A stretch of 64,000 bases of DNA from an uncultured Rikenellaceae bacterium (GTDB lineage: Bacteria; Bacteroidota; Bacteroidia; Bacteroidales; VadinHA17). The stretch spans positions 2,298-66,297 of the forward strand of contig CAZXSW010000007.1 in assembly GCA_964642615.1 (NCBI GenBank), given 5' to 3'. The notes beneath the pieces were generated by a model. The model was not told where the DNA came from and searched no databases. It saw only the letters and a program-made list of their open reading frames with translations. A program made the position numbers and the translations under genes. Shown here piece after piece: positions 6,336 through 61,423 of this stretch (the first letter of the stretch is position 1; the number at the start of each line of letters is the position of its first letter).

Positions 6336-7742
6336 ATGAGTGGTTTTTTCGGTGTCATTTCAAAGACCGATTGTGTTCACGATGTGTTTTATGGTACTGA
6401 TTATCATTCGCATTTAGGGACAAAACGTGCAGGTATTGTTTTTATTGTACCAGGCAAAGGATTCAGACGGTCGATCCACAACCTTGAAAATGCTTATTTC
6501 CGCAGCAAATTTGAAGATGACCTGAAAGAATTTAGCGGTAACTCGGGCATGGGTATCATAAGCGACACGGATCCGCAGCCCATCCTGTTCAACTCCCATC
6601 TTGGCAGGTTTGCCATTGTTACTGTAAGCAGGCTGGTTAATATTGAAGAACTCGAGAAAAAATTTCTTGGCAGCCGCAAGCATTTTACTGAAAATTTTGA
6701 GGGTAATATTAATCCCACCGAAGTCATAGCCAATCTTATATGTGAAAGGGACAGTTTTATTTCAGGTATAGAGAATGTATTTGACAATGTAAAGGGTTCG
6801 TGTTCGCTTATGATACTTACCGAAGATGGTATTATTGCTGCAAGGGACAAGAATGGACGCACACCGGTCATCATTGGCAGGAAGGAAAATGCTTTTGCAG
6901 TTGCAAGTGAATCGAGTTCATTTCCCAATACAGGTTACGAAACCGAATATTATCTTGGTCCCGGTGAGATAGTCCATCTGACTTCCGACGGTTACAAACG
7001 GATAAGGGAACCTGAAGAAAAGATGCAGATCTGCGCTTTTCTGTGGGTTTATTATGGTTATCCTCCTTCTTATTATGAAGGTATAAATGTTGATGATTGC
7101 AGGAACCGCTGCGGGGAAGCCCTGGCACGAAGGGACTCTGTGCAGGCTGACTTCGTTTGCGGGATACCCGATTCGGGAGTAGGGCATGCCATTGGTTACA
7201 GCAATGAAAGATGTATTCCATATAAAAGGGCTTATTCTAAATATACGCCCACCTGGCCAAGGAGTTTTATGCCTCAGAATCAGAGTCAGAGAGATCTGGT
7301 GGCAAAGATGAAGCTGATTCCAAACAAGGCTGTTATCGGAAATAAAAGGATGGTTTTCCTTGATGACAGTATTGTCAGGGGAACGCAGCTTAAGGACAGC
7401 ACTGCCGATCTCAGGAATTCAGGCGCCACTGAGGTTCATATGAGAATAGCCTGTCCGCCCCTTCTTTATCCCTGTCAGTTTCTTAATTTCTCCCAGTCGA
7501 GGTCTCCTATGGAACTGGCCGGACGGAAAGCCATTTTCCAGATTGAGGGAAAAGAACCTGAAGATGTCAGGGAATATGCTGACCCTGACTCGGAAAAGCA
7601 TGCACTGATGGTTGAAACGATAAGGAAAACCCTTGATCTTGACTCGCTTATTTATCAACGTATGGATGATATGGTTCAGGCTATCGGCCTTCCTAAGGAA
7701 AAGCTTTGTACACACTGCTGGGATGGATCCGGCTATTTCTAG
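6336..7742 (+). CDS. amidophosphoribosyltransferase-like protein (PurF family, class II amidotransferase plus PRTase domain) with Ser in place of the N-terminal Cys
   Basis: 468 aa. It has a GATase-2-like N-terminal half and the PRTase PRPP loop MVFLDDSIVRGTQ. The C-terminal Cys residues (CPPLLYPC, CTHC) resemble the PurF Fe-S ligands. The N-terminus is MSGFFG, not MCG. Confidence 0.8.
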   Translation: MSGFFGVISKTDCVHDVFYGTDYHSHLGTKRAGIVFIVPGKGFRRSIHNLENAYFRSKFEDDLKEFSGNSGMGIISDTDPQPILFNSHLGRFAIVTVSRLVNIEELEKKFLGSRKHFTENFEGNINPTEVIANLICERDSFISGIENVFDNVKGSCSLMILTEDGIIAARDKNGRTPVIIGRKENAFAVASESSSFPNTGYETEYYLGPGEIVHLTSDGYKRIREPEEKMQICAFLWVYYGYPPSYYEGINVDDCRNRCGEALARRDSVQADFVCGIPDSGVGHAIGYSNERCIPYKRAYSKYTPTWPRSFMPQNQSQRDLVAKMKLIPNKAVIGNKRMVFLDDSIVRGTQLKDSTADLRNSGATEVHMRIACPPLLYPCQFLNFSQSRSPMELAGRKAIFQIEGKEPEDVREYADPDSEKHALMVETIRKTLDLDSLIYQRMDDMVQAIGLPKEKLCTHCWDGSGYF

Positions 7743-48982: not shown

Positions 48983-50143
48983 ATGAAGAAAGTATTAAGT
49001 GTTTTTTTAAGCGTGTTTTTAGTTACTGCACTGATAATGGTCAGTTCGGAAACTGCTACCGGTCAGACTGCCAAACCGGCTGCTAAAAAAATTGTTCCCG
49101 GAGTACAGGCTCCTCCTGCCAATCCAGGACAGAATAACTTCGGTGGGATGCGTCCACCTGCAGGCTCAGCTCAACCAAGGCCTCCCATGGCCCGTCCTCC
49201 AATGGCTGAACCAAAGATTACTACGGTTTCACTTGATGATATTTCAATGAGTGACCCTTTTATCTATGTTGAGAAATCGACGAATACCTATTATCTCACA
49301 GGTACCGGCGGACGTCTTTATAAAAGCAATGACCTTAAGATGTGGACAGGACCGTATTCCATTATCAACCTGGAGGGAACATGGATGGATGGTAATTTTG
49401 TTGCTGCCGCAGAGATTCACAAGATAGGTAATAAGTATTACCTGGCAGGCACCTGGAGTGATCACAGCACAATTATCCAGTATGTACCCCGCCGTTATAA
49501 TGTGCCGCGTAACCAGACCCAGCTTCTGGTTGCCGATACGCCCGAGGGTCCGTATTACCCCCTTGTCAAGGAGAAAGAGTTTTGCCTCGGTCCTGAAGAC
49601 TGGGATATCATCGATGGAACACTTTATGAGGAGAACGATACTACCTATATGGTAATAGTTCATGAATGGACCCAGCTGATCGACGGGACAATGGATTACA
49701 TGCCTCTTTCAAAGGACCTTACACACAGGACGGCTGATCCGATCACTATGTTCCGTGCAAGTGAAGCAGCCTGGTCAAAGGAAATGAACGGTATTGGAGA
49801 AGCTACTTTTGGTCTTAAAATGCCGGGTTGGGTAACTGATGGTCCTCAGATGTTCAGGACAAAAACAGGAAGACTTGGAATGTTATGGTCGAGCTGGGGT
49901 GACAGAAGATATGCTCAGGGGATTGCCTGGTCGGAGTCAGGTACTATCCACGGTCCGTGGATCCAGGAACCAGAATCGTTCAAAGGCGATAACTCGGGTC
50001 ATGGAATGCTGTTCACCACCCTTGAGGGCAAACTGCTGTTTATCATTCACCATGCCGAAGGCAACGGCCCCAGGAAACCAGAGCTTTATGAAATAGACAA
50101 CTCGGGTGATAAACTTATTCTGGGAGCCAGATATAATCCCTGA
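48983..50143 (+). CDS. glycoside hydrolase family 43 protein with a Pro-rich N-terminal linker
   Basis: 386 aa. The signal peptide is followed by about 50 aa of low complexity (PPANPGQNNFGGMRPPAGSAQPRPPMARPPMAEP) and then a five-bladed-propeller-like GH43 core (SDPFIYV.....YYLTGT, WAPE-like AAEIH, DG). Confidence 0.8.
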   Translation: MKKVLSVFLSVFLVTALIMVSSETATGQTAKPAAKKIVPGVQAPPANPGQNNFGGMRPPAGSAQPRPPMARPPMAEPKITTVSLDDISMSDPFIYVEKSTNTYYLTGTGGRLYKSNDLKMWTGPYSIINLEGTWMDGNFVAAAEIHKIGNKYYLAGTWSDHSTIIQYVPRRYNVPRNQTQLLVADTPEGPYYPLVKEKEFCLGPEDWDIIDGTLYEENDTTYMVIVHEWTQLIDGTMDYMPLSKDLTHRTADPITMFRASEAAWSKEMNGIGEATFGLKMPGWVTDGPQMFRTKTGRLGMLWSSWGDRRYAQGIAWSESGTIHGPWIQEPESFKGDNSGHGMLFTTLEGKLLFIIHHAEGNGPRKPELYEIDNSGDKLILGARYNP

Positions 50144-50220
50144 TTCTTTAAATAGTTTATTTGATGTCGCGACCCCGAAGGTTTATCTTCATTTTCCAGG
50201 GGTCGGTATTTAGCAGCAAA

Positions 50221-50259
50221 GATCCCTGACCTCAATGGTCAGGGATCTTTTAATTTTTA
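50221..50259 (+). terminator. rho-independent terminator after the GH43 gene
   Basis: A perfect 11-bp stem GATCCCTGACC (50221-50231) / GGTCAGGGATC (50237-50247) with a 5-nt loop is followed by TTTTAATTTTT. Confidence 0.8.
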
Positions 50260-50360
50260 CCTGAAACCGGAATTGCGCTTTCGGGCTGACCGTCGGGCTG
50301 CTGCTGTCAGTTTTTGGAGTTAATGCTACTTTCTTTCAGGCCCGGCAAGAGGCGGTATTG

Positions 50361-51128
50361 CTAAATATCAAGTATAATGCCTACCGGGCAATGGTCTGAT
50401 CCGGTTATTTCTTCATGAATAAAGGAGTCTTTCACCTTAGGGAGGAAGTAACTGCTTACAAGGAAATAATCGATTCTCCAGCCTATGTTTCTCGATCTTG
50501 CGCCTGCCCTGAAGCTCCACCAGGTGTATCTTCCGGCCATTTCAGGATAAAAATGGCGGAAAGTATCAGCCAGACCGCCACCGGTCAGCCTGTCCATACC
50601 GTCTATTTCTTCCTGCATATACCCTGCTGCCTTGTTGTAGTTCTCTTTAGGCCTGGCCAGGTCAATACTCCTGTGTGCCACATTCAGGTCGCCGCAGACG
50701 ACAACCGGTTTGGTTTTTTCAAGTTCCTTAAGGTATCCGAAAAATGCCTTGTCCCATTCCTGCCTGTAACCCAGTCTCAGGAGCTCACTCCCTGAATTCG
50801 GCACATATACATTTACAAGGAAGAACTGTTCAAACTCAAGGCATAAAACCCTGCCCTCAGTGTCATGTTCTGCAATTCCGATGTCGTAAGTCACATTAAG
50901 AGGTCTGATCCTTGAAATAACAGCTGTTCCTGAATAACCCGGCCTTATGGCTGAGTTGGAATATATATACAGGCCACTCAGTGGTTCAAGGGTTTCAGCA
51001 ACCTGACCATCCTGTGCCTTTGTCTCCTGCAGGCATGTTATGTCGGCGTCAAGAAATTCAAGATCGCTGAAGAAAGATTTCTTTGCTATCGCTCTTATGC
51101 CGTTGACGTTCCATGAAATGATCTTCAT
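50361..51128 (-). CDS. xth: exodeoxyribonuclease III
   Basis: The start is at MKIISWNVNGIRA (ATG 51128). The motifs are CLQETK, GDLNVAH, WWS.R and the C-terminal SDHCPV. Confidence 0.9.
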   Translation of the reverse strand: MKIISWNVNGIRAIAKKSFFSDLEFLDADITCLQETKAQDGQVAETLEPLSGLYIYSNSAIRPGYSGTAVISRIRPLNVTYDIGIAEHDTEGRVLCLEFEQFFLVNVYVPNSGSELLRLGYRQEWDKAFFGYLKELEKTKPVVVCGDLNVAHRSIDLARPKENYNKAAGYMQEEIDGMDRLTGGGLADTFRHFYPEMAGRYTWWSFRAGARSRNIGWRIDYFLVSSYFLPKVKDSFIHEEITGSDHCPVGIILDI

Positions 51129-51281
51129 ATGCGGTAATAAATTAATCAATATCCTGTAAAGATTCCATATCCGGGATAATTTTCAGGACTATGGTTATGC
51201 CCTTCGGGGTACTGCCTGAAGATAATATCTTTGATTCAAAAATGGCAGGAGTATGCCGCTAAAAATTCAAGGAGTCTTAGG

Positions 51282-51620
51282 TCAGAGTACCCTTGTTGAG
51301 GCAAGGGGTTTCGGAGCTTTGACGACCAGGATCCGGGCCCTGGCTTCGGAACTGTTTGACAGGCAGTGGATGATGTCTTTCGGACTCTCAACAAGTCGGT
51401 CTGAGCTGACAGTCACTGTCTCGTCACCAACCCTTATATCAACATCTCCTTCGAGGATGTAAAAAAAGACATCCACAGGAGTGATATGGGGTTTCAGTGA
51501 CTCTCCCGGCTTTAGTGTTATATGCATAACCTGTGCGCTGTCGAGGTCGTACAGCTTCCTTACGTCAACCTTGTGTGGTGTTTCGACAATGCTTTTATCT
51601 TTCCAGTCGGTAATTATCAT
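51282..51620 (-). CDS. cupin domain protein
   Basis: 112 aa with the cupin_2 pattern PGESLKPH......FFYILEG...I.VGDE. Confidence 0.7.
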   Translation of the reverse strand: MIITDWKDKSIVETPHKVDVRKLYDLDSAQVMHITLKPGESLKPHITPVDVFFYILEGDVDIRVGDETVTVSSDRLVESPKDIIHCLSNSSEARARILVVKAPKPLASTRVL

Positions 51621-51626
51621 ATTTAT

Positions 51627-52175
51627 CTATTTTAAGGAAGGATCCCCCTTCCATAGTCCTTTATTGCCTTTTCGTGCCCCTGAAGCCAGTTCAGTGAATG
51701 TACCTGCATGCCTTACATTGGGTGGAACAGTCATTACAGTTGCGTAACCGTTCTTTACCATCTCGGCATTGACGAAGGTACCATCCTCAAGAAATACATA
51801 CGCCAGTGTGCGTCCATACCTGTCATACCTCGAAACATCGAATTCAAGTCTTACCTTTTTGTTATATAACAACTCTTTGAGGTAAATGGTTGACTCTGCC
51901 CCGAAGAAACTTTTTGTCTTTGTTCCGGTATTGCGTGGTTCGGGCGAGTCGATTCCTGTCAGACGTATCTTCAACCCCTTTGAACTGCCGTCATCAATCC
52001 AGAATGTATCGCCGTCGACTATTTTCTTAACAGGGAACCATATTCCGTCAGCAGGGCTGACGGCGGTTGATGGAAGGGTTTTTTCAGAAGCCTGTTCTGA
52101 GATGGCCGTTACCTTGTCCTGCGAAAATGCAGTAAAAGGCAGAATGGCCAGGAGTATTTGGAGAATATATTTCAC
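51627..52175 (-). CDS. secreted thermonuclease (SNase) family protein
   Basis: 182 aa with a signal peptide. The motifs are IRLTGIDSPE, DRYGRTLAYVF and VNAEMVKNGYA. Confidence 0.8.
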   Translation of the reverse strand: MKYILQILLAILPFTAFSQDKVTAISEQASEKTLPSTAVSPADGIWFPVKKIVDGDTFWIDDGSSKGLKIRLTGIDSPEPRNTGTKTKSFFGAESTIYLKELLYNKKVRLEFDVSRYDRYGRTLAYVFLEDGTFVNAEMVKNGYATVMTVPPNVRHAGTFTELASGARKGNKGLWKGDPSLK

Positions 52176-52270
52176 CTGTCAGATCAGATAGTGATTATTA
52201 CAAATAAAGGATCGGCAATTTAAGAAATTATTCCTTTTGCTTTTACTGACAAGCCTGTTAAGAAAAAGAG

Positions 52271-53539
52271 CTATTCCATCTCCCTGGCAATAGCCATTGC
52301 CGCTATTGTCCCGTCGGCCACTGCTGTTGTTATCTGCCTGTATTTTTTGCTTATGACATCTCCTACAGCATAAATGCCTGGTATGCTTGTCTGCATATCT
52401 TCATCTGTAATGATGAAGCCCCGGTTATCAAGCTTAAGCTTATCGCTGAAGAGTTCAACGTTGGGTTTCATTCCAATGAATACAAAGACGCCGTCACTTA
52501 CAAGCTCTGTTTTCTCACCCGTTTTTACATTTTTCGTAAGGGTAATAAGCTTATCTCCTTCTTTTCTGAATTCCCTGGGTTCATTATTGAAAATGAAATT
52601 CATCTTAGGATTTTTAAATATCCGTTCCTGGGCCTGCTTATTGGCTGTAAGTTTATCGAACTGGTGAACCAGGGTAATCCTGGATGCAAACTTGCTTATA
52701 TATTCCGATTCTTCTACTGCAGAGTTACCTCCTCCAATAACGACGACATCCTTGTCGTTAAAATATTTGGCATCGCAGGTTGCGCAATAGGAGATACCCC
52801 TGCCTTTAAGTTCTTTTTCGCCTGCAGCACCAGTGAGGTTGGGAGTGGTACCGGTGGCGATAACTATTTTTTTTGCCTTTATTGTCTCGTACTCATCTAT
52901 AACAACCTCTTTTTTTACAAGGTCGACAGAGGTAACATCCACAGCCACTTTGTATACTGTTCCGCAAAGCTTGGTCTGCTCACTCATGTTGTGCGACAGA
53001 AGAAAGCCGGGCTGGGGCTCAATAAATCCGGGATAGTTTGAAACCTGATGGGTTGTTGACACATTTCCTCCCGGCAAAGCAAGGTCAATGAGCACGGTAT
53101 TTATCTTTGACTGGCATAGATATAATCCGGCAGTAAGTCCTCCCGGTCCGGCTCCCAGAACAATTACATCGAACTCAGATACCGAAGGTTTAATTGTTGA
53201 CTTTATCGCGCCGGCTCTTTCGGGTGTAAGCATGGAATCGAGATTTTTAATGATCTCACTTCTTTTTATGCCGCCACCCAGTCTTCCCGAAATCTCCTTT
53301 CCGTTGTCATAGAAAAGAAGTGTCGGGGATGATTTAACTCCCAGCTTTTCTGCAAGCTCTCTGTTTTCCTGACGGAATATTTTCAGGAATTTTATATCCT
53401 TTCCGTATAGTAATGAAAGGTCCTCAAATTTTGAAGCAAGAGCCTCGCACGGAGGACATTCGCTCGAATAAAAATCAAGTACTACTTTTCCACCATCGAT
53501 AACTTCATTGTCAAATTCCTGAGCAGTGATCTCTTTCAT
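52271..53539 (-). CDS. thioredoxin::thioredoxin-reductase fusion protein (N-terminal Trx domain with a CPPC motif fused to a low-Mr TrxR)
   Basis: 422 aa from ATG 53539 (MKEITAQEFD...). The Trx fold is VVLDFYSSECPPCEAL...SSPTLLFY. The TrxR part has VIVLGAGPGGLTAG (FAD), the redox-active CATCD and VIGGGNSAVEE (NADPH). The ATG overlaps the TGA of the radical SAM gene (ATGA). Confidence 0.85.
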   Translation of the reverse strand: MKEITAQEFDNEVIDGGKVVLDFYSSECPPCEALASKFEDLSLLYGKDIKFLKIFRQENRELAEKLGVKSSPTLLFYDNGKEISGRLGGGIKRSEIIKNLDSMLTPERAGAIKSTIKPSVSEFDVIVLGAGPGGLTAGLYLCQSKINTVLIDLALPGGNVSTTHQVSNYPGFIEPQPGFLLSHNMSEQTKLCGTVYKVAVDVTSVDLVKKEVVIDEYETIKAKKIVIATGTTPNLTGAAGEKELKGRGISYCATCDAKYFNDKDVVVIGGGNSAVEESEYISKFASRITLVHQFDKLTANKQAQERIFKNPKMNFIFNNEPREFRKEGDKLITLTKNVKTGEKTELVSDGVFVFIGMKPNVELFSDKLKLDNRGFIITDEDMQTSIPGIYAVGDVISKKYRQITTAVADGTIAAMAIAREME

Positions 53540-54870
53540 ATTACCTGTTGATTTAAATAAACTGAAAATCCAAGTTCCATAAGTTCCTTTACAGGACGGC
53601 AATCAGGGGCATTTATGATACCCGTTCTGTTTTTTGCCACCGAGCCGCATCCTCCTCCGCAGGCAAGCTGAACAGGGCAGCTTTTGCATTCGGGAATCGA
53701 AGTGACATCGCGTGTTTCCCATTTTTCTATTAATTCGTCCTTTCTGGTGACATCGGGATAAAAAGTCCCCAGCAGCTCATCTCTTTTCCCAACCGTTGCC
53801 GTGCACGAATAGATACCTCCTGTATAGTCAAAGGCCCATTCTGTCTTGCAGGCGGGACATGAATCGAAGAGGGGATCGGGAAGAGTTCCGTTTTCGGAAA
53901 GGAATTTTGTCAGTGACCATGCGGGCTTGTAAAATTCCTGAATATGAGGATGGATCTTTACAAGCTCAAATATCTTCTCATAAAGTGATAGCCTGTCAAA
54001 AAGCTTTTCAGGTGCTGACTGACAATGATGAAGCTCATAATTGCGGCCTATCTGTGTTTTAAAAAGACCGCTGCCTGTCCAGCCACTGTCAATTGCATAC
54101 CGTGCGAGATTGGGTAAGTCATCAATATTATCCTTGTCGGCTACCATACGAAGGTTAATATTGATTCCGTTTTCGAGGCAGGCATCAATCCCTTTTGCTA
54201 TTTTCTCAAAGGTTTTTCCTCCGCCTTTTAATGATCTCCTGGTGTCGTGAATTACAGCAGTGCCATCGAGAGTAACCTGGATCTCCCTTATTATGCCTTT
54301 TTGCAGGACAGGGATATACTCTTCAAGATAATAACCATTGGTTACAAAACAGAGGGGAAGACCAGCACCGGCAGATTTTTCGACTATATAGGATATCAGC
54401 TCTTTCTGTGCCGGATTTCCCAGCATAGGCTCCCCGCCGAATATTGTAATATATTTTCTCCGCGATGCAAACTCCTTATCCACATATATGAAGAAAGTAT
54501 CAATAATTTCTTTTGTAAGAGCTTGTGAAGTATAGCTGTACTGATCCTGGTAACAATAGCTGCAGGCAAAGTTGCAACTGTAGTTTGTCACGAAAAATAT
54601 CTGAATTTCTTCATCTTCCCTGTTATCTATGAAATCGAGATATTTACTGCGGTAAAGCTTTTCTTCTTCAGACTCTTCAGACAGATAGCCTTTTTCAGTC
54701 AGTTCATCCGTGAAGGCCCTGTCATCAGGATTTCCACCTTCGATGATAAGCTTTAACTTAGTGGCATCTTCCTTATTAAGTATGTCAGCATTACCTGAGA
54801 GGACATTAACTATGAAATAGTTCTCAGAATCTCTTATCCTTGAGAAGATGTTGTGTTTTGAATATTTCAT
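53536..54870 (-). CDS. radical SAM/SPASM-domain peptide-maturase-like enzyme
   Basis: 444 aa. CNFACSYC (CX3CX2C) lies at residues 99-106, after an extension of about 90 aa (NIFSRIRDSENYFIVNVLSGNADIL, as in peptide maturases). A complete SPASM motif is present: CKTEWAFDYTGGIYSC (CX9GX4C) ... CKSCPVQLACGGGC (CX2CX5CX3C) ... C. Confidence 0.9.
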   Translation of the reverse strand: MKYSKHNIFSRIRDSENYFIVNVLSGNADILNKEDATKLKLIIEGGNPDDRAFTDELTEKGYLSEESEEEKLYRSKYLDFIDNREDEEIQIFFVTNYSCNFACSYCYQDQYSYTSQALTKEIIDTFFIYVDKEFASRRKYITIFGGEPMLGNPAQKELISYIVEKSAGAGLPLCFVTNGYYLEEYIPVLQKGIIREIQVTLDGTAVIHDTRRSLKGGGKTFEKIAKGIDACLENGININLRMVADKDNIDDLPNLARYAIDSGWTGSGLFKTQIGRNYELHHCQSAPEKLFDRLSLYEKIFELVKIHPHIQEFYKPAWSLTKFLSENGTLPDPLFDSCPACKTEWAFDYTGGIYSCTATVGKRDELLGTFYPDVTRKDELIEKWETRDVTSIPECKSCPVQLACGGGCGSVAKNRTGIINAPDCRPVKELMELGFSVYLNQQVI

Positions 54871-54873
54871 TTA

Positions 54874-54978
54874 TCAGTCGTGGCAGCCTGCAACTGTTTT
54901 TGAGGTTTTTGCACAACACTGAGCCACTTTGGCTTTACTTTTTGTCTTGTCCGTTTTTTTTCTGATAAAACTTTTCAT
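54874..54978 (-). CDS. unannotated 34-aa Cys-containing peptide (candidate rSAM/SPASM substrate or RiPP precursor)
   Basis: Hand translation of the minus strand gives ATG(54978)...TGA(54874) = MKSFIRKKTDKTKSKAKVAQCCAKTSKTVAGCHD. It begins 8 nt after the thioredoxin stop, and its TGA is followed by TAA and then the ATG of the radical SAM gene. It occupies 105 of the 116 intergenic nt. Confidence 0.55.
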   Translation of the reverse strand: MKSFIRKKTDKTKSKAKVAQCCAKTSKTVAGCHD

Positions 54979-54986
54979 GATTTCTT

Positions 54987-55454
54987 TTATTTGATTTTAA
55001 GTATTTCATTTATAGCACCAACAAGGGCTTCCCTGGGAAGAGCTCCCATAGTCCCCTGAGGAGGCCCTTCAGCAGGAATGAAAAGCAGTGTCGGCAGACT
55101 TGTTATGCCAAGCGTTTGAGCCAGAAGCTGCTCCTTGTCTGTATCCACCTTATAGACATCTATCTTCCCCGAATATTCCTTTGCAATCTCTTCAACAAGA
55201 GGAGATAGCTGCCTGCAGGGAGGACACCAGTCGGCATAAAAATCAATGATAGCCGGTCTTTCGCCTTCAAATTTCCATTCCTTATTTATGTCATAATTGA
55301 AGATCATTTCCTTGAATGAATCGTTGGAAAGGGTCCTTACAGCGCCTTCTCCGGCAATTTCTGAGACAGCAGTTGCCTCCGGACGCCTGTCGGCTTTGCA
55401 ATCACTGAATATCAGCGTAAAGCCTGCGATCAATATTAAAAAATATTTACTCAT
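54987..55454 (-). CDS. exported thioredoxin-family protein (probable lipoprotein) with a WCPPC active site
   Basis: 155 aa. The signal sequence is MSKYFLILIAGFTLIFSDC. The Trx fold is AIIDFYADWCPPCRQLSP....YKVDTD......LGI.SLPTLLFIP. Confidence 0.85.
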   Translation of the reverse strand: MSKYFLILIAGFTLIFSDCKADRRPEATAVSEIAGEGAVRTLSNDSFKEMIFNYDINKEWKFEGERPAIIDFYADWCPPCRQLSPLVEEIAKEYSGKIDVYKVDTDKEQLLAQTLGITSLPTLLFIPAEGPPQGTMGALPREALVGAINEILKIK

Positions 55455-55506
55455 CTTCTGTCAAATAGATATTGATATTTGTAATTATTTAAATAATTTT
55501 TTTTCT

Positions 55507-55539
55507 GCCTGCATGGCTGTGTGCTAAATCAATGCAGGC
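55507..55539. other. 8-bp hairpin GCCTGCAT/ATGCAGGC (17-nt loop) in the gap between the methyltransferase and thioredoxin genes
   Basis: Read directly from the sequence. On the transcribed (minus) strand it is followed by A8 rather than a U-tract, so it is not a canonical terminator. Confidence 0.4.
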
Positions 55540-55552
55540 AACAGCAGATTAT

Positions 55553-56179
55553 TTATTTCTTTTTTCCTGTAATGGTCCAGCTGCTAACCAGTACACTGCC
55601 TTTTTCATAGGGGGCAGATTCTTCGAGCACTGTTACTGAATTGAATCCTGCATTTTCGAGCTGACCTGAATATTCATTCCTGGTTACAGCCCCGGCCCAG
55701 CATTCGGCCACAGCTTCAGGATCATTCCTGTATTTGTCGGGAACAGGCTCGAGGGAATATATATCACTTACAACAAATCTTCCACCGGGTTTGAGAATAC
55801 GGTTTACTTCATTCCATACAGATTGTTTATCTGAAGAATGATTGATTGTGCAGTTTGAAATTACCAGATCGACACTTGAATCATCGAGACATAGTTTCTC
55901 AAGCGGGCAGTTAAGAAAGCTTACGTTTTTAACACCAAGACGTTCGGCTGTATTTCTTGCTTTCTGAAGCATGCCCTCTGAAATATCTATTCCATATACA
56001 AAGCCCTGTGGACCTGCTGACTCAGCCATCCTTAACACATCAGTTCCCCTTCCGCTTCCCAGATCAACTATAGTCTCTCCTTCAGAAACCTCAGAATGGT
56101 TTATAGCCCCTCCACATGAGAGGCAACAATCTGTGTCTGCCAGTGTACTGTATCTTTTATTTATTTCAATATTATTCAT
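55553..56179 (-). CDS. arsM: ArsM-like SAM-dependent methyltransferase (short form)
   Basis: 208 aa. It has an N-terminal Cys cluster DCCLSCGG, the SAM motif I VDLGSGRGTD, VISNCTINHSSDK and ECWAGA. The Cys placement matches the arsenite methyltransferase pattern (SNCVINL, C.AGA). Confidence 0.6.
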   Translation of the reverse strand: MNNIEINKRYSTLADTDCCLSCGGAINHSEVSEGETIVDLGSGRGTDVLRMAESAGPQGFVYGIDISEGMLQKARNTAERLGVKNVSFLNCPLEKLCLDDSSVDLVISNCTINHSSDKQSVWNEVNRILKPGGRFVVSDIYSLEPVPDKYRNDPEAVAECWAGAVTRNEYSGQLENAGFNSVTVLEESAPYEKGSVLVSSWTITGKKK

Positions 56180-56198
56180 AGTGAAAATCAGGTTAATA

Positions 56199-56453
56199 TC
56201 AGTCCTGTTTTTTCTGCGCCCCTTTACCCGGAGAAGGTGTGATAAGGAAACCCAATAAACCTCCCATTATAATGCTTCCCCATGGTGTGCTTGTTATCGG
56301 ACAGGTCCCGGAATTACATCCGATAAAGTAATAATAAAGATATCCTGCCACAGCTCCGGTTGCTACTCCCAGGAAAGGTCTCCAGAAATGCCACGACTTA
56401 AAAAAATCCATTCCGGATTTTGGTTTTGTTGTTGCAGATAAGTCAGAATCCAT
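56199..56453 (-). CDS. DUF6132-like small membrane protein with a GCNSGTCPITS motif
   Basis: 84 aa (or 70 aa from the second Met at 56411). It has two TM segments flanking a GC-x-SG-x-C-P-I-T-S motif. Confidence 0.6.
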   Translation of the reverse strand: MDSDLSATTKPKSGMDFFKSWHFWRPFLGVATGAVAGYLYYYFIGCNSGTCPITSTPWGSIIMGGLLGFLITPSPGKGAQKKQD

Positions 56454-56475
56454 TAATCAGTATTTATTTTTTTTG

Positions 56476-56483
56476 CAAAGATA
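56476..56483 (-). promoter_or_regulatory. putative -7 promoter box TATCTTTG for the minus-strand DUF6132/arsM(/trx-peptide-rSAM) transcription unit
   Basis: The plus strand reads CAAAGATA, 23-30 nt upstream of the ATG at 56453. Confidence 0.45.
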
Positions 56484-56492
56484 TAAATTTTA

Positions 56493-56506
56493 TGCGATAA
56501 ATCGCA
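56493..56506. promoter_or_regulatory. palindrome TGCGAT-AA-ATCGCA in the divergent control region (candidate operator)
   Basis: A perfect 6-2-6 inverted repeat lies immediately upstream of the minus-strand -7 box and 41 nt upstream of the plus-strand -7 box. Confidence 0.4.
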
Positions 56507-56546
56507 ATAGTATCACTTAAATCATATTATTATCACTCATTTTTTT

Positions 56547-56554
56547 TATCTTTG
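56547..56554 (+). promoter_or_regulatory. putative -7 promoter box TATCTTTG for the zinc-ribbon ORF
   Basis: Perfect TAnnTTTG 18 nt upstream of the ATG at 56572. The 8-mer is identical to the divergent promoter box. Confidence 0.45.
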
Positions 56555-56571
56555 TTGTTAATAAGTACTTT

Positions 56572-57018
56572 ATGGAGCCAATTTTCAAAGGAGAACTTTC
56601 AGAAAGACAGCTTGAAGAGCTTTTCAGCAGTGATGAAAAATGTCTTCAGTTTCTTGCAGAGATTAAATGGAAGGATGGTTTTGTCTGCCGGAAATGTGGG
56701 AATGATAATTACTGTGCCGGAAAAACTCCGTGGTCAAGGAGATGTACGAAGTGTAAATCAGAGGAATCGGCGTCGGCGGGGACTATATTTCACAACTGCA
56801 AATTCCCGTTGCATAAAGCATTTTACATTGCCTACAACGTTTGTAAGGGGAAGGAAGACATTTCAACCTATGAATTTGCACGGAGGTTATCGCTGAGGCA
56901 GATGACCTGCTGGAACTTCAAAACAAAAATATTCCATGCCCTTCAGGAGATGGATTCTCTTACAGAAAAAGAAAAACAGTCGATACAAAGGATCTTTTCC
57001 CAGGAGATCAGGAAATAG
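56572..57018 (+). CDS. stand-alone IS1595-type transposase N-terminal zinc-ribbon/HTH domain protein (no DDE domain)
   Basis: 148 aa. CLQFLAEIKWKDGFVCRKCGN......RRCTKCKSEESASAGTIFHNCKFPL.KAFYIAY matches the Zn_Tnp_IS1595 layout. The ORF stops where the DDE catalytic domain would begin. I saw no flanking terminal inverted repeats. Confidence 0.65.
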   Translation: MEPIFKGELSERQLEELFSSDEKCLQFLAEIKWKDGFVCRKCGNDNYCAGKTPWSRRCTKCKSEESASAGTIFHNCKFPLHKAFYIAYNVCKGKEDISTYEFARRLSLRQMTCWNFKTKIFHALQEMDSLTEKEKQSIQRIFSQEIRK

Positions 57019-57409
57019 CTTTGTTTACTATTTCAAGCGTTTCATCCGAAGCAGCTTTCATCACTTTTGCTATTGAATCGGGCTGGCCGGCTGACATTTT
57101 ACTTCCGTCAATAACTGCAATGTATGTAAGGCCGTCGTCCTTTACATAAACCGAAATACGGCATGGCATCATAACCGACATTATCCGTTCATGATTGAGT
57201 TCAAGCATCTGTCCGGAGTATTGGGGTTTGCAGATCTCAATTACCTTAACCGGTTTTACAGTTTTTCCTGATTTAAGCAGTGAAAGTTGCAGGTCGTGTG
57301 TTGCGGGTATGTTCCATGATCTTTCACCAGCTTCTTTTAAAATATTGTCAACGGTCCGGTCAAAGTCGTATCCGCTGGTCAGTTCAATAATAAAATCACC
57401 TTTACTCAT
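57008..57409 (-). CDS. DUF302 domain protein
   Basis: 133 aa. The pattern H.L...L......VKPVKVIEICKP.....L......MSVMMPCRISVY..D....IA is typical of DUF302. Its 3' end overlaps the convergent zinc-ribbon ORF by 11 nt. Confidence 0.8.
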   Translation of the reverse strand: MSKGDFIIELTSGYDFDRTVDNILKEAGERSWNIPATHDLQLSLLKSGKTVKPVKVIEICKPQYSGQMLELNHERIMSVMMPCRISVYVKDDGLTYIAVIDGSKMSAGQPDSIAKVMKAASDETLEIVNKAIS

Positions 57410-57560
57410 ATCTCATTTCTTTTAACCGGGGTTCTGGTTTATTACACTTCTTAAATTTAACCACTTTATTTTATTTAATAAGAGGATATTGGATATTATT
57501 TAAACATCCACCTCCAGCCGGGGGTTTTTCCGGCCAGGTCACTTTTGAGATCATGCCTCC

Positions 57561-57602
57561 ACAAAAAGAAAGGAACAGGAATCTTCTACAATTTCCTGTT
57601 CC
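57561..57602 (-). terminator. rho-independent terminator after the GH10 gene
   Basis: A perfect 10-bp stem GGAACAGGAA (57572-57581) / TTCCTGTTCC (57593-57602) is followed on the minus strand by TTTCTTTTTGT. Confidence 0.7.
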
Positions 57603-57655
57603 ATGAATCTGCCGGGAAATAACAATGTTTTTGGTATGCCCGGACCTTTGATTTA

Positions 57656-58759
57656 TCAGAACTTTACAACTTCCCAGAATACTTTTTTGGGTTTGGAGTT
57701 TTCATCAAACAGCAGGGGATACACTTTCATATCTCTTCTGTCGCGCCAGCTGTGCCTGTCGGTTACGTTCCAGAAGGTGATGCTGTTGACAACATCCTTT
57801 TTCTCCCTGAAAACGTTAAAGGCCATTTTGTAAAGATCAATCTGTTTCTGTTCTCTTTCGGGGGTAAAGCCAATTCCGATGGTATCGGTTCTTGAACCAT
57901 AAATCGACACGTCAAGTTCGGTGACCTGTACTTTAAGACCCAGTGAAGCAAATTTATCAATGCTTGCCCTCAGGTTTTCCTCGGTAGGGTCAGTGATGCT
58001 CCAGTGACCCTGCAGTCCCACTGCATGAACCGGTACCCCGGCGTCAATAAGCTTTTTAAGCATTGTATACATGCGGTCCCTTTTGGAAGGGTTTTCTGTA
58101 TTATAGTCATTATAAACAAGAAGGGCATCGGGATCGGCTTCATGGGCCCACTCGAACACTTTAGCCACATATTCCTCGCCTATTATTTTGTACCATTGAG
58201 TCTCCCTGAAGATTCTGGTTGTATCACGATCTTCAATAACTTCATTAAGAACGTCCCATGCATATACTTTTCCCTTGTAACGCGACACTACAGCCGTTAT
58301 GTGATCCTTAAGCCTTGCCATGGCCACTTCCTTTGAAACCTGGTTCCCTTTATCATCCTTGAACATCCAGTCAGCCGTCTGCGTGTGCCAGCATAGTGTA
58401 TGTCCTCTTACTTTCATTCCGTTTGCCATGGCAAAATCGACTATCATATCGGCATTTTCCCATGCAAAACTATCTTCAGCAGGATGAATCGGACCGGGTT
58501 TCATAACGTTTTCAGCGGTGATGCTGTTGAAATGTTTTTTTATCAGCTCGGCTTCTTCTCCCTGAAGGTTTTGAGGACTTACAGCCACCCCGATATCAAA
58601 ATAACCCTGGTAAAAGTCCTTAAGTCCTTTTGTGGAATCAATTCCTCCGGCATCTTTAAGGCCTGAACCGCTGCAGTTGGCTAGCAGGACTATCAGGGCA
58701 GCCATGGCTGACACTGAAAAAAATCTGATAATGGTTGTCATTGATGTTTTTGTCTTCAT
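57656..58759 (-). CDS. glycoside hydrolase family 10 endo-1,4-beta-xylanase
   Basis: 367 aa with a signal/lipoprotein N-terminus. The motifs are GHTLCWH.Q, WDVLNE (acid/base Glu), NDYN and VQVTELDV (nucleophile Glu). Confidence 0.9.
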   Translation of the reverse strand: MKTKTSMTTIIRFFSVSAMAALIVLLANCSGSGLKDAGGIDSTKGLKDFYQGYFDIGVAVSPQNLQGEEAELIKKHFNSITAENVMKPGPIHPAEDSFAWENADMIVDFAMANGMKVRGHTLCWHTQTADWMFKDDKGNQVSKEVAMARLKDHITAVVSRYKGKVYAWDVLNEVIEDRDTTRIFRETQWYKIIGEEYVAKVFEWAHEADPDALLVYNDYNTENPSKRDRMYTMLKKLIDAGVPVHAVGLQGHWSITDPTEENLRASIDKFASLGLKVQVTELDVSIYGSRTDTIGIGFTPEREQKQIDLYKMAFNVFREKKDVVNSITFWNVTDRHSWRDRRDMKVYPLLFDENSKPKKVFWEVVKF

Positions 58760-58889
58760 AAGTATATGTGTTAGGGGTTAATAGACAAAAGCGGCAAAAT
58801 CTTATTTCGGTTTAATGATCAGGTAATTCAAAAATAGTTAAAAAACGTTAAAAAAGACGTAATTAATATGGCTAAAAACTTAAAATAAA

Positions 58890-58952
58890 ACACTTTTACA
58901 GGAACAGGGATCCGGAACAGCTGATAATAAAGTTGAATTATCCTGTTCCGGA
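58890..58952 (-). terminator. terminator-like hairpin after the GH95 gene, with two alternative partner arms
   Basis: TCCGGAACAG (58911-58920) pairs with CTGTTCCGGA (58943-58952). Alternatively GGAACAGG (58901-58908) pairs with CCTGTTCC (58942-58949). T-rich sequence follows on the minus strand. Confidence 0.45.
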
Positions 58953-58969
58953 CCCAGTGCCATGTCAGT

Positions 58970-61423
58970 TTATGGTTTATTGCTTTTTACAACCGCAACT
59001 GTTTTCCCTTTACGGGTTGAAAGATCATATTCATATACTTTCTCAGGTGCATCCGGGGTTATAGCCGCATGGATCAGCGGGCTTTTTATTCCGGGGACCT
59101 TATAAAACATATTGGGATTTTCGCCCTTTGCTTTTTTCAGGCCTTTACCTTTTAAGGGGACGTATGACCTGATACGGCAGTTACCTCCAAGTGATGATTT
59201 GATCACAGCTTCACTTATCTCACCGTTTTCCCATTCGATATCGAGTTCAAATCCGCCTCTGGCTTTTAGTCCGCTTACACTGCCTTTCTTCCATATTCCG
59301 GGAAGGGCTGGCAGAAGATGGACGGCTCCGTCGTGGCTCTGAAGAAACATCTCTGCTATTCCAGAAGTACAACCGAAATTGCCGTCAATCTGGAACGGAG
59401 GGTGGGCGTCAAAAAGGTTGGGATAGGTGCCTCCCCTTTCCCTTCTTCCGGCCTGGATCGATGGACTAAGCTGGTCGGTAATCAGTTTATACGCATGGTC
59501 ACCGTCGAGAAGCCTTGCCCAGAGGTTCACCTTCCATCCCATGGACCATCCTGTTGATTCATCACCACGTGCCTCGAGTGAGGTCCGGGCTGCCGAGAAC
59601 AGTTCAGGGTTTCTGTAAGGCGATATCTGGTTTGAAGGATACAGGCCGTACAGGTGTGAAACATGACGGTGTTTGTCCTCGGGGTTATCCAGATCCTGCA
59701 TCCATTCCTGCAACTGACCCCAGCTACCTGTCTGCATGGGAGGGAGACGGTCAAGAGCCGTCTGAAGACGCGATACAAACTCCGTGTCAGTATCCAGGAT
59801 ACGGGCAGCATTGATTGTCTTGCTTAACAGGTCGAAGACGAGCTGGTTATCCATGGTTGTTCCGGCGCTTATTGAATAAGCCGAACGTACTGACGGAGCA
59901 TTCTCCGGAGAGTTGGATGGAGAAACGACAAGCCATTTGTTTTCGGGCTCTTCAGTAAGAAAGTCGAGAAAGAATTGCGATGCTTCCTTTACTACCGGAT
60001 AGATAGTTTTGAGATACTCCCTGTCGCCGCTGAAATCATATTTGTCGAACAGGTGCTGCGAAAGCCATGCTCCTCCCAGAGGCCATTGTCCCCAGAAAGC
60101 TCCGTCGACAGGTCCGGTAATCCTCCAAATATCCGTATTATGATGAAGAACCCAGCCGCCGGCTCCGTACATATCGCGGGCGGTCTGACGGCCTGTCTGC
60201 GACAGTTCCTGTACCATCTTTATCAGAGGTTCATTCATCTCTGTAAGGTTGGTTATCTCGGAAGGCCAGTAGTTCATCTCAGTGTTTATGTTGACAGTGT
60301 ATTTGCTGTCCCACGAAGGAGTAAGCTGATGGTTCCATAATCCCTGCAGGTTGGCCGGCTGACCTCCTGGCCTGGAAGACGATATAAGAAGATAGCGGCC
60401 AAACTGGAAATAAAGTTCAACAAGCTGGGGATCATCACCCGTGGCAAACTCATTAAGTCTTTGATCAGTAGGTTTCCTTACGGCTTCCGTTGAGCCAAGG
60501 TCAAGGCTGACCCGTCTGAAGAAACTGCGGTAATCGGCAATATGATCATTCAGAATGGCCTCATAGTCTTTCTTTGAGGCAGTGTTGAGGTAGGCAAGGG
60601 CCCTTTCAGAAGGGTCGGCGCCGATGTCTTCATAACTCCTGAAGCCTGAAGCCATCGAGATGAAGATTGTTACTTCATCTGCTCCCCTGACATCAATTAC
60701 CGAATCGGTCGCTGCAACCTGTCCGCCCTTGTTTATAAACCTAGCCCGGGCTTCAAAGCGAAGGCCGCCTTTCACTGTTTCAAAATCGCCTGTCGTTCCC
60801 GACATTATCAGTTCGTTGGTCCCGGCAGTCGATTTGTCAACCTTTGATGGTCTTTCGAGGCTGGCTGAGAAACTTACTGATCCGTGTTTGTCGGCAGAGA
60901 TGCGTACTATCACAACCTGGTCCACACCCGAGGCAAAGACGCTAGTTTTGTAAGCAACACCGTTGACGCTGTATCGCGACGACACCACAGCCCTGTCTAT
61001 ATCAAGCTCACGGTAGTAGTCTGAAAAACCGGCGTTGCCCGGGAATTCCAGTTTCAGGTTACCAACGGTCTGATAAGGCATTCCGTGGGATGTTTTGGAG
61101 ATGAACGCCTGGTTAACCAGATCCTGGGCTTCCTTGTATTTGCCCTCGAAAATAAGCCTCCTGACTTCAGGCAGGGCCTCCCTGGCAGCTGTATTGTCGT
61201 TCCTGTTGGGTTGTCCTGCCCATACAGTGTTTTCATTAAGCTGGATGACCTCGTTAACCGGATCCCCGAACACCATGGCTCCCAGGCGTCCGTTGCCTAC
61301 AGGTAACGCTTCGACCCACTGTATTGCGGGCTTGTCGTACCATAGCTTCAGCAGGTTGTTTTCCTGGGCAGTAAGACCGGTTAAAGACAGGATACTTAAT
61401 ACCAGAACAATCAATTTCTTCAT
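58970..61423 (-). CDS. glycoside hydrolase family 95 (alpha-L-fucosidase/galactosidase type)
   Basis: 817 aa with a signal peptide. [23 protein letters not shown]......IQLNE.T.W.G is the typical GH95 N-terminus. Further family-typical blocks are YT.NINT.MNYW and SPEN. Confidence 0.9.

Follow-up and report, generated by a model that had tools for sequence, protein, structure and literature searches.

Among peptide maturases of the radical S-adenosylmethionine (SAM) superfamily, CteB and SuiB are SPASM enzymes that bear a RiPP recognition element (RRE), where RiPP denotes a ribosomally synthesised and post-translationally modified peptide. SCIFF, mycofactocin and pyrroloquinoline quinone (PQQ), systems of a profile similar to the one described here, proved to be cofactor-like or physiological and not antibiotic. 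In arsenic biochemistry, catalysis by the methyltransferase ArsM runs through a disulfide cascade that is reset by thioredoxin (Trx) and thioredoxin reductase (TrxR). A vicinal Cys pair is common in many ArsMs, and ArsD and ArsR bind As(III) via three Cys residues, vicinal pairs included. Here we describe a gene cassette in which a short Cys peptide, a radical SAM (rSAM)/SPASM enzyme, an ArsM-like methyltransferase and a Trx::TrxR fusion occur together. It lies in 64,000 nucleotides of DNA from an uncultured Rikenellaceae bacterium (GTDB lineage Bacteria; Bacteroidota; Bacteroidia; Bacteroidales; VadinHA17; GenBank assembly GCA_964642615.1, contig CAZXSW010000007.1, positions 2,298 to 66,297), and this whole stretch is referred to below as the window. 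The original prediction, made from the letters of the window alone, had proposed a RiPP-like redox system there.

What is new about the cassette is that an rSAM/SPASM-peptide system stands in an unprecedented obligate partnership with an ArsM-type enzyme and a Trx/TrxR pair. The genes of the operon are given here from upstream to downstream, all on the minus strand.

56199-56453, minus strand: DUF6132-like small two-helix membrane protein with a GCxSGxCP motif between the helices (PF19628, 35.8 bits); accessory
55553-56179, minus strand: short ArsM-type SAM methyltransferase, 208 aa (listing of open reading frames, PRK11873 match, ArsM structure alignment)
54987-55454, minus strand: exported Trx, 155 aa, signal peptide with lipobox Cys19, WCPPC (open reading frame listing, Pfam/NCBIfam); accessory
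54874-54978, minus strand: candidate precursor or carrier peptide, 34 aa, MKSFIRKKTDKTKSKAKVAQCCAKTSKTVAGCHD (open reading frame, homologs beside the rSAM gene, codon-level selection)
53536-54870, minus strand: probable rSAM/SPASM peptide maturase, 444 aa (PF04055, TIGR04085, CteB as closest PDB sequence)
52271-53539, minus strand: fusion of a Trx (ECPPC) with a low-molecular-weight TrxR-like flavoprotein (Thioredoxin and Pyr_redox_2 domains)

Our preferred reading, to which we assign a probability of roughly 0.35, is that the cassette makes an intracellular, thioether-modified tri-thiol peptide and that this peptide, the methyltransferase and the Trx system together act on a thiophilic metalloid or chalcogen. 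We hold with much greater confidence the more general view that this is a conserved intracellular peptide/rSAM/methyltransferase/Trx module, and not a bacteriocin. A listing of open reading frames (ORFs) reproduced every gene of the original prediction on the minus strand at its predicted position. The coordinates also give the tight spacing it described, with 8 nt between the exported Trx and peptide genes and 3 nt between the peptide and rSAM genes, and the overlap of the rSAM stop with the Trx::TrxR start can be seen in the sequence as ATGA. The fusion is taken to start at the ATG at 53539, and not at an upstream TTG, because homologs align from residue 1.

Synteny was counted over loci with enough flanking DNA (n = 79, or n = 66 for genes far upstream), and relatives of the rSAM enzyme were sought in one genome per GTDB species. 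The scan found at least 552 loci in these species-representative genomes. In 76 of the 79 loci the methyltransferase gene is no more than 2.3 kb upstream of the rSAM gene, in 77 the Trx::TrxR gene is no more than 2.8 kb downstream of it, and all four genes, counting the peptide, are found together in at least 100 retrieved loci. The hosts, hundreds of uncultured anaerobes, include members of Bacteroidota, Ignavibacteria, Spirochaetota, Myxococcota and Fibrobacterota, so the predicted synteny of rSAM homologs with a short Cys ORF and with Trx/TrxR genes holds across phyla. The ArsM-like and DUF6132-like genes had been described as preceding the system; their position is as described, but the ArsM-like gene belongs to the core and is more constant than the exported Trx. 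The latter is indeed encoded, but it is accessory only: 42 of 79 loci (about half) have it ahead of the peptide, and it sometimes follows the rSAM gene instead. A DUF6132 gene is found upstream in 51/79 loci, DUF302 in 36/66 and a zinc-ribbon gene in 43/66, and the position of DUF302 varies: it is upstream of the regulator, or elsewhere downstream of Trx::TrxR. These four genes are thus frequent but dispensable.

An independent scan with a DNA pattern for the peptide gave at least 120 further loci, from Myxococcota/Anaeromyxobacteraceae, ‘Deltaproteobacteria’, Fibrobacterota, Spirochaetota, Leptospirales and Ignavibacteria, and from one metagenome-assembled genome (MAG) each of Cyclobacteriaceae and Marinamargulisbacteria. 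Where such peptide-anchored loci had at least 3 kb on both sides, all four partners were present in 16 of 22. In distant lineages the cassette genes occur in altered order and orientation; in Myxococcota, where ORFs in the high-GC loci were called with a filter on GC content at third codon positions, gene order is altered and Trx and TrxR are two adjacent separate genes. This linkage through rearrangement, together with the fused and separate (Rosetta-stone) states of Trx and TrxR, is strong evidence for a functional unit. A single transcription unit, whose four core genes act together inside the cell, is the best explanation of the cassette.

The peptide itself has two unlike halves. Its N-terminal half is Lys-rich (MKSFIRKK... 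in the window), and in the homolog alignment this half is variable and Lys-rich and starts MKSLIKK; the C-terminal core, AQCCAKTSKTVAGCHD in the window, is followed directly by the stop codon. Homologs are 32-34 residues long, and their last 16 residues read A-Q-C-C-A-K-x-S-x4-G-C-H-D-stop. Across 95 distinct DNA sequences the A, C, C, A, K, G, C and H of the core are invariant, and every synonymous codon is in use at these invariant residues. For each pair of sequences, 8.6 of the 16 third codon positions in the core differ on average (54%), versus 2.8 of the 32 first and second positions (9%). From this excess of third-position differences it follows that the peptide is under purifying selection, and that the ORF is a real gene selected at the protein level. 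The conservation of the core is comparable to that of an enzyme active site. In 103 of 116 retrieved loci the peptide gene, located by tblastn and ORF extraction, is 0-210 nt upstream of the rSAM gene. A profile built from the homolog alignment, headed by a 43-aa variant, was also searched against a collection of 5.8 billion proteins, and this returned more than 1400 peptide clusters, all of them unnamed or labelled ‘hypothetical protein’. No selenocysteine variant was seen, as all three Cys codons are TGY in 95/95 DNA variants. Myxococcota peptides carry an additional vicinal CC in the leader, for example MKLLTKVKKACCTTEKAAQCCAKASRLVSGCHD (loci L124, L155, L180 and L194, from Anaeromyxobacteraceae and ‘delta proteobacterium’ MAGs).

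The neighbouring rSAM protein passes the cut-offs of PF04055 (radical SAM, 72.9 bits vs 29.5) and TIGR04085 (SPASM, 42.6 bits vs 27). Its closest PDB sequence is CteB (5WGG), the SCIFF thioether synthase, with which the SPASM cysteines align Cys-for-Cys, and this agrees with the proposal that the short Cys peptide adjoins an enzyme of the thioether-maturase type. In aligned homologs of 54-72% identity, the cluster motif C99x3C103x2C106 and the SPASM residues C338..G351x4C356..C395x2C398x5C404x3C408..C424 are invariant. An eighth Cys of the SPASM region, C341, is variable, which we take to be the pattern of enzymes, such as CteB, whose Aux-I cluster keeps an open site for a substrate Cys. In an AlphaFold2 model, residues 1-82 form strands at 7-11, 18-22 and 27-31 and helices at 33-43, 51-59 and 66-82, with a predicted local distance difference test score (pLDDT) of 74-93; this β3-α3 topology suggests an RRE-like N-terminal domain. 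The top Foldseek matches of the model are CteB and SuiB, both full length (435-459 columns). All the best NCBIfam matches are to maturases of Cys peptides, and by homology the enzyme is probably a RiPP-type peptide maturase of the class that includes CteB, PapB, QhpD and the sactisynthases, in which a Cys sulfur becomes linked to a carbon within the substrate peptide.

The enzyme does not reach the NCBIfam cut-off of any named maturase family that was compared: CefB (NF038107, 143/600), TIGR04463 (123/525), Clo7bot (107/600), PapB (NF047865, 105/340), the SCIFF maturase ScfB (TIGR03974, 76/425), QhpD (64/453), MftC (54/265) and likewise CcpM. Close homologs number in the thousands; the best 120 are 68-100% identical and are unnamed or called ‘radical SAM protein’ or ‘uncharacterized protein’. 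This is in keeping with the view that the cassette belongs to no named RiPP family, and source databases offer only ‘radical SAM protein’ or ‘hypothetical’. We found no description of the cassette in the searchable literature, NCBIfam, Pfam or source annotations, and a paper on RiPP mining in Bacteroidales mentions no thioredoxin- or arsenic-linked cluster (PMC10352776).

A different assignment would make the protein an anaerobic sulfatase-maturating enzyme (anSME) that acts on a distant sulfatase, leaving the short ORF as a product of chance. The window is rich in glycoside hydrolase genes, and the core C-C-A-K-T is loosely like the sulfatase motif C-x-A-x-R. Yet the anSME model TIGR03942 gives 60.4 bits vs a cut-off of 349 and is outscored by a dozen models of peptide maturases, while purifying selection acts strongly on the ORF, whose synteny holds in more than 100 loci; the modelled RRE-like domain also speaks against this assignment. 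We regard it as refuted by the anSME score, the selection and the synteny, so that the grouping with sulfatase maturases which the original prediction had named as a risk does not occur.

The next relatives of the rSAM enzyme, at about 30% identity, come from MAGs of Firmicutes and Mycoplasmatota, where unrelated Cys peptides adjoin the gene and no methyltransferase or Trx is present; the cassette enzymes appear to be a well-separated clade. That these relatives sit in ordinary Firmicutes RiPP clusters could favour a classical RiPP, a sactipeptide or ranthipeptide. The methyltransferase would then S-, N- or O-methylate the peptide, Trx would only hold its Cys residues in the reduced state until they are cross-linked, and a signalling or antibiotic peptide would be released by housekeeping proteases and transporters encoded elsewhere. 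An RRE-bearing rSAM/SPASM enzyme beside a Cys peptide is the canonical RiPP signature, and SCIFF clusters, to our knowledge, also lack a protease or transporter. Against this, no recurrent peptidase, ABC or other exporter, or immunity gene emerged when all ORFs were clustered, first over about 100 loci and later over about 200, just as none had been seen in the window. The near-invariance of the core across phyla and the lack of export genes speak against a classical secreted RiPP: the core is invariant over at least five phyla, unlike the cores of bioactive RiPPs. The methyltransferase moreover retains the exact metalloid Cys triad, which peptide methylation would not need, and a dedicated disulfide reductase is the most conserved member (74% mean identity). 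We therefore consider a classical RiPP possible but unlikely.

That triad is best seen by comparison with ArsM. PRK11873/NF008823 is the leading family match of the methyltransferase, and the first non-ArsM family in NCBIfam reaches 62 bits, so that the lead of ArsM exceeds 100 bits. The nearest PDB entries are ArsM structures (5EVJ, 4FR0/4KW7), and C22, C110 and C160 align with the As(III)-binding residues Cys72, Cys174 and Cys224 of CmArsM. Cassette copies with an intact frame, from all retrieved phyla, show essentially no variation in the motifs CCLSCGG, SNCTIN and ECWAG. A Cys-less methyltransferase paralog, encoded downstream in some genomes, has none of the three. The cassette enzyme thus keeps the full ArsM-type metalloid-binding Cys triad. 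Many homologs are labelled ‘arsenite methyltransferase’ by JGI and others ‘UbiE’, while NCBI uses ‘methyltransferase domain-containing protein’. Some cassette methyltransferases carry Cys-rich tails, ...SCSCCKN and ...KGCCN (L007 5685-5744; L014 5722-5853), which are reminiscent of the Cys-rich C-termini that occur in some ArsMs.

The fusion comprises Thioredoxin and Pyr_redox_2 domains (193.7 bits), and scores 309 bits with TIGR01292 vs a cut-off of 343. Its active sites are ECPPC in the Trx domain and CATC and GGGNSA in the low-molecular-weight TrxR domain, the last two being kept in at least 90% of 83 homologs. The original prediction saw a complete NADPH-TrxR-Trx electron chain wired into the operon. 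The Trx/TrxR linkage stands (77/79 loci), but NADPH as the donor is not supported. The motif for the NADPH 2'-phosphate in TrxR is VxxxHRRDxxRA/HRRxxxR (PMC10880999, PMC5627308). At residues ~300-312 of the fusion, HRRxxxR is replaced by HQFDKLT (VHQFDKLTA); HQF is conserved in the 83-homolog alignment, where 83 of 83 sequences have HQFxxxx for HRRxxxR, and family-wide the replacement reads HQF....ANK. Judging from these motifs, the fusion is a genuine disulfide reductase module that lacks the motif for the NADPH 2'-phosphate, and NADH or ferredoxin/flavodoxin is the more likely electron donor. A role in reducing Fe-S clusters, which had also been suggested, is unlikely because the CxxC is retained; the fusion more probably reduces disulfides on the peptide, the methyltransferase or both.

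The need of this TrxR-like protein for another donor is one reason to consider a peptide-derived redox cofactor or electron carrier like mycofactocin or PQQ. The rSAM enzyme would act on the GCHD end, an unlinked peptidase would trim it and it would be methylated, giving a product for use by the TrxR-like flavoprotein or by some other redox enzyme. As in MftA/MftC, a precursor with an extremely conserved C-terminal core is encoded shortly before the rSAM/SPASM gene, and the mycofactocin maturase gives a weak full-length match (54 bits). That score must be set against a cut-off of 265, however, and no peptidase or family of cofactor-dependent dehydrogenases is linked. Conservation also covers the entire 16-residue core, beyond the last two residues. 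A cofactor of this kind is distinctly unlikely in our judgement.

Neighbouring genes were examined in the same ORF clusters. Per 200 loci, a YgaP-like one-Cys membrane protein occurs in 43, a Cys-less TehB-like methyltransferase in 36, DUF1847 in 26, rhodanese in 12 and an SQR-like flavoprotein in 8. OsmC, a Nitro_FeMo-Co family protein, DUF134, YeeE/YedE sulfur-transport proteins and TauE are other recurrent minority neighbours. The flavour of these genes is the handling of thiols, sulfur, chalcogens or soft metalloids, and no partner is frequent enough to name the substrate. Such neighbours could point to a module for reactive sulfur or for disulfide/oxidative stress, in which the peptide would carry or sense thiols or persulfides and be recycled by Trx::TrxR, and the methyltransferase would detoxify sulfide, persulfide or selenide by methylation. 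A subset of loci has OsmC, peroxiredoxin, rubrerythrin/ferritin, rhodanese, SQR-like, YeeE/YedE, TauE or YgaP-like genes, and DUF302 is reported beside sox genes. Each such neighbour is nevertheless present in under 25% of loci, the rSAM enzyme would be left without a role, and Cys triads of the ArsM type are not known to be necessary for sulfide methylation. We find such a stress module quite unlikely.

Several side observations concern gene arrangement. In about a quarter of the rSAM-anchored Bacteroidales loci, a downstream block encodes the YgaP-like protein, the TehB-like methyltransferase, OsmC, the Nitro_FeMo-Co family protein (with a His/Cys-rich tail) and DUF134; examples are L003 9039-9656, L004 8964-9593, L005 12419-13042, L008 12078-12692 and L036 12740-14544. 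A Cys-rich DUF1847 protein is encoded between the rSAM and Trx::TrxR genes in L009/L074 (~6453-7004). One Bacteroidales MAG has two head-to-tail peptide-rSAM-Trx-Trx::TrxR copies, 71-72% identical to the query (L001, CAWHGX010000065.1, 51-6799), and a third copy on another contig (L043).

Returning to a peptide that handles a metalloid or chalcogen, the proposed cycle is as follows. The N-terminal domain of the rSAM enzyme would bind the Lys-rich MKSLIKK leader, and the enzyme would put at least one thioether link into the core; a Cys-to-Asp/Asn link could plausibly form at the C-terminal C-H-D/N, as the analogy with PapB and QhpD suggests. The product would be a rigid peptide that still offers thiol and His ligands, and it may serve as an intracellular carrier or chelator, with As(III) as the prime candidate and Sb, Se and Te as alternatives. 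The ArsM-like enzyme would methylate the peptide-bound element. Trx::TrxR would then re-reduce the disulfides of methyltransferase and peptide in each cycle, mirroring the Trx dependence of ArsM, with electrons probably drawn from NADH or ferredoxin/flavodoxin and not from NADPH. The zinc-ribbon protein would control the operon through a tandem-repeat operator, and DUF6132, YgaP-like and exported Trx proteins, where present, could carry the thiol chemistry to the envelope.

A number of observations weigh against this proposal. No ars genes (arsR, acr3/arsB, arsC) recur near the cassette in about 200 loci, and in place of ArsR the cassette has zinc-ribbon, MarR-like or Crp-like regulators. The PRK11873/NF008823 score of the methyltransferase, 197.9 bits, falls short of the cut-off of 263, as the match covers no more than model positions 57-246 of 272. 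The protein is without both the N-terminal extension and the C-terminal domain of ArsM. For the maturase, the Pfam SPASM and PqqD models gave no match when run on the isolated domains; the overall pLDDT of the AlphaFold2 model is 64, and drops below 50 from residue 330 (the SPASM half), which was unused for inference. A few Anaeromyxobacteraceae loci have peptide, Trx and TrxR with no rSAM or ArsM-like gene within the 8-kb stretch, all cassette carriers are MAGs, and the need of a metalloid carrier for radical SAM modification has no direct explanation. Those rSAM-less Myxococcota loci have a TehB-like methyltransferase, rhodanese, SQR-like, YeeE/YedE, TauE and DUF5714 as neighbours.

A bolder form of this chemistry would give the radical enzyme a direct part in it. 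The peptide could be a template for organo-metalloid synthesis, whose three thiolates would hold As(III) or Se/Te while a carbon radical made by the SPASM enzyme is captured at or near the metalloid, forming a C-As or C-Se bond; the ArsM-type enzyme would methylate the product and Trx/TrxR would reset the thiols. We judge this very unlikely. If true, the product would be the first RiPP to contain arsenic or a chalcogen, or a peptide-bound carrier for methylation, and would reveal an unrecognised route of metalloid methylation in anoxic sediments and soils, where these short genes already receive arsM annotations.

The operon faces a divergent gene across a short control region, whose features in the window are the following.

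56476-56483, minus strand: putative Bacteroidota-type -7 box for the operon, TATCTTTG on the minus strand (conserved block ...TATCTTTGC...)
56498-56538, minus strand: operator-like tandem direct repeat, minus-strand GAGTGATAATAATATGATTT then AAGTGATACTATTGCGATTTA (50-region intergenic alignment)
56547-56554, plus strand: matching putative -7 box TATCTTTG for the divergent zinc-ribbon gene (conserved block ...CAAAGATAA..., read on the operon strand)
56572-57018, plus strand: divergent 148-aa IS1595-type zinc-ribbon protein (PF12760; NF033547, N-terminal part only), probable dedicated regulator
57008-57409, minus strand: DUF302 protein (PF03625), accessory

The original prediction pointed to a palindrome in this divergent region, and TGCGAT-AA-ATCGCA is indeed found at 56493-56506. 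As a control element it was rejected, since GCGAT..ATCGC is present in 0 of 50 homologous intergenic regions; only its left half is conserved, as part of a direct repeat. What the 50 regions share is a tandem direct repeat, AGTGATAyTAA-AAAGATTT then ARGTGATAyTATTGCGATTTA, with a unit of about 20 bp, placed between the two divergent promoters. TAnnTTTG boxes, presumably the Bacteroides promoter -7 consensus, flank the repeat, one facing each way. The pattern GTGRTA-N6-8-GATTY was found in 48/48 loci with the zinc-ribbon gene, in at least two copies in 44, and over the 939 kb searched there are 125 occurrences on the operon strand vs 9 on the other. The zinc-ribbon protein, 64-84% identical and in the same position in dozens of genomes, comprises only the zinc-ribbon/N-terminal region of an IS1595 transposase and has no DDE domain. 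It looks like a domesticated transposase DNA-binding domain that regulates the cassette. Spirochaetota/Leptospirales loci have a 142-aa gene in its place, MarR-like by eye only, and some Bacteroidales have a Crp-family gene nearby (Pfam). An Rfam search for RNA elements (E<=1) over 51000-57800 returned only a chance match to RT-7 (19.5 bits vs 116.8), and a scan for sigma-70 promoters and terminators gave no more sites than in shuffled sequences.

The zinc-ribbon (plus strand) and DUF302 (minus strand) genes are convergent, and their 3' ends overlap by 11 nt at 57008-57018 of the window. The wider flanks (48983-52175 and 57656-61423) encode a GH43-like protein, an ExoIII-like nuclease and a large GH95-like hydrolase, as read by eye from translations, as well as cupin, SNase and GH10 xylanase proteins (Pfam). 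None of the genes flanking the cassette in the window is kept beside it in other genomes, and the cassette is an island.

With at least 552 loci, more than 1400 peptide clusters and several phyla, the cassette is among the most widespread unnamed peptide/rSAM systems that can be documented here. Surveys of arsM in paddy soils, sediments and digesters probably count its methyltransferase, given the JGI labels. Environmental arsM counts in anoxic habitats may thus partly reflect the cassette, and its true substrate affects how the potential for anaerobic arsenic methylation is read. The fusion is a compact pair of Trx and a non-NADPH TrxR-like protein with known genetic partners, and could assist in tracing where reductases of this type draw their electrons. 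In the divergent gene the cassette offers a clear candidate for the conversion of a transposase DNA-binding domain into a regulator, and its operator can be recognised.

Finally, the cassette can be set beside the described systems. In SCIFF of Clostridia (ScfA with ScfB/CteB), the gene of a short, highly conserved Cys peptide likewise directly precedes that of an rSAM/SPASM enzyme, which bears an RRE where the cassette enzyme has a predicted RRE-like domain; genes for a protease, a transporter or immunity are absent from both, and an intracellular role is probable; CteB is also the closest solved structure in sequence and fold. In contrast to SCIFF, the cassette peptide has three Cys in ~32 aa and another motif, the ScfB model reaches 76/425, and the hosts are Bacteroidota, Spirochaetota and Myxococcota; SCIFF has no linked methyltransferase or Trx/TrxR. 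PapB/freyrasin and QhpD share the seven-Cys SPASM region, the PapB model aligns over rSAM residues 97-422, and the C-H-D/N of the cassette could be a Cys-Xn-Asp/Asn cross-link site. However, the PapB score is 105/340 bits, and the cassette peptide, whose thioether product is a prediction, has one invariant core and not repeated CX3D motifs. Mycofactocin (MftA/MftB/MftC) is comparable in its tiny peptide with a conserved C-terminal core, its rSAM/SPASM maturase and its redox context, whereas the cassette has no equivalents of MftB, MftE, MftD or MftF, an MftC score of 54/265, and a Cys-centred, not Val-Tyr-centred, core. ArsM/AS3MT provides the best family and structure matches of the methyltransferase, with the SAM motif, the three As(III) Cys residues and a vicinal CC just upstream, but the cassette enzyme is only 208 aa long, lies outside any ars operon and is always paired with the peptide and rSAM genes. 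Adjacent rSAM and ArsM-type genes are also found in ArsS-ArsM (arsenosugars) and ArsL-ArsM (arsinothricin); ArsS and ArsL do not belong to the SPASM/RRE peptide maturases and act on no peptide, and the ArsM models of the arsenosugar and arsinothricin pathways score 84/400 and 116/500 on the cassette methyltransferase. In short, the overall architecture seems closest to SCIFF, while the gene pairing recalls ArsS-ArsM and ArsL-ArsM.

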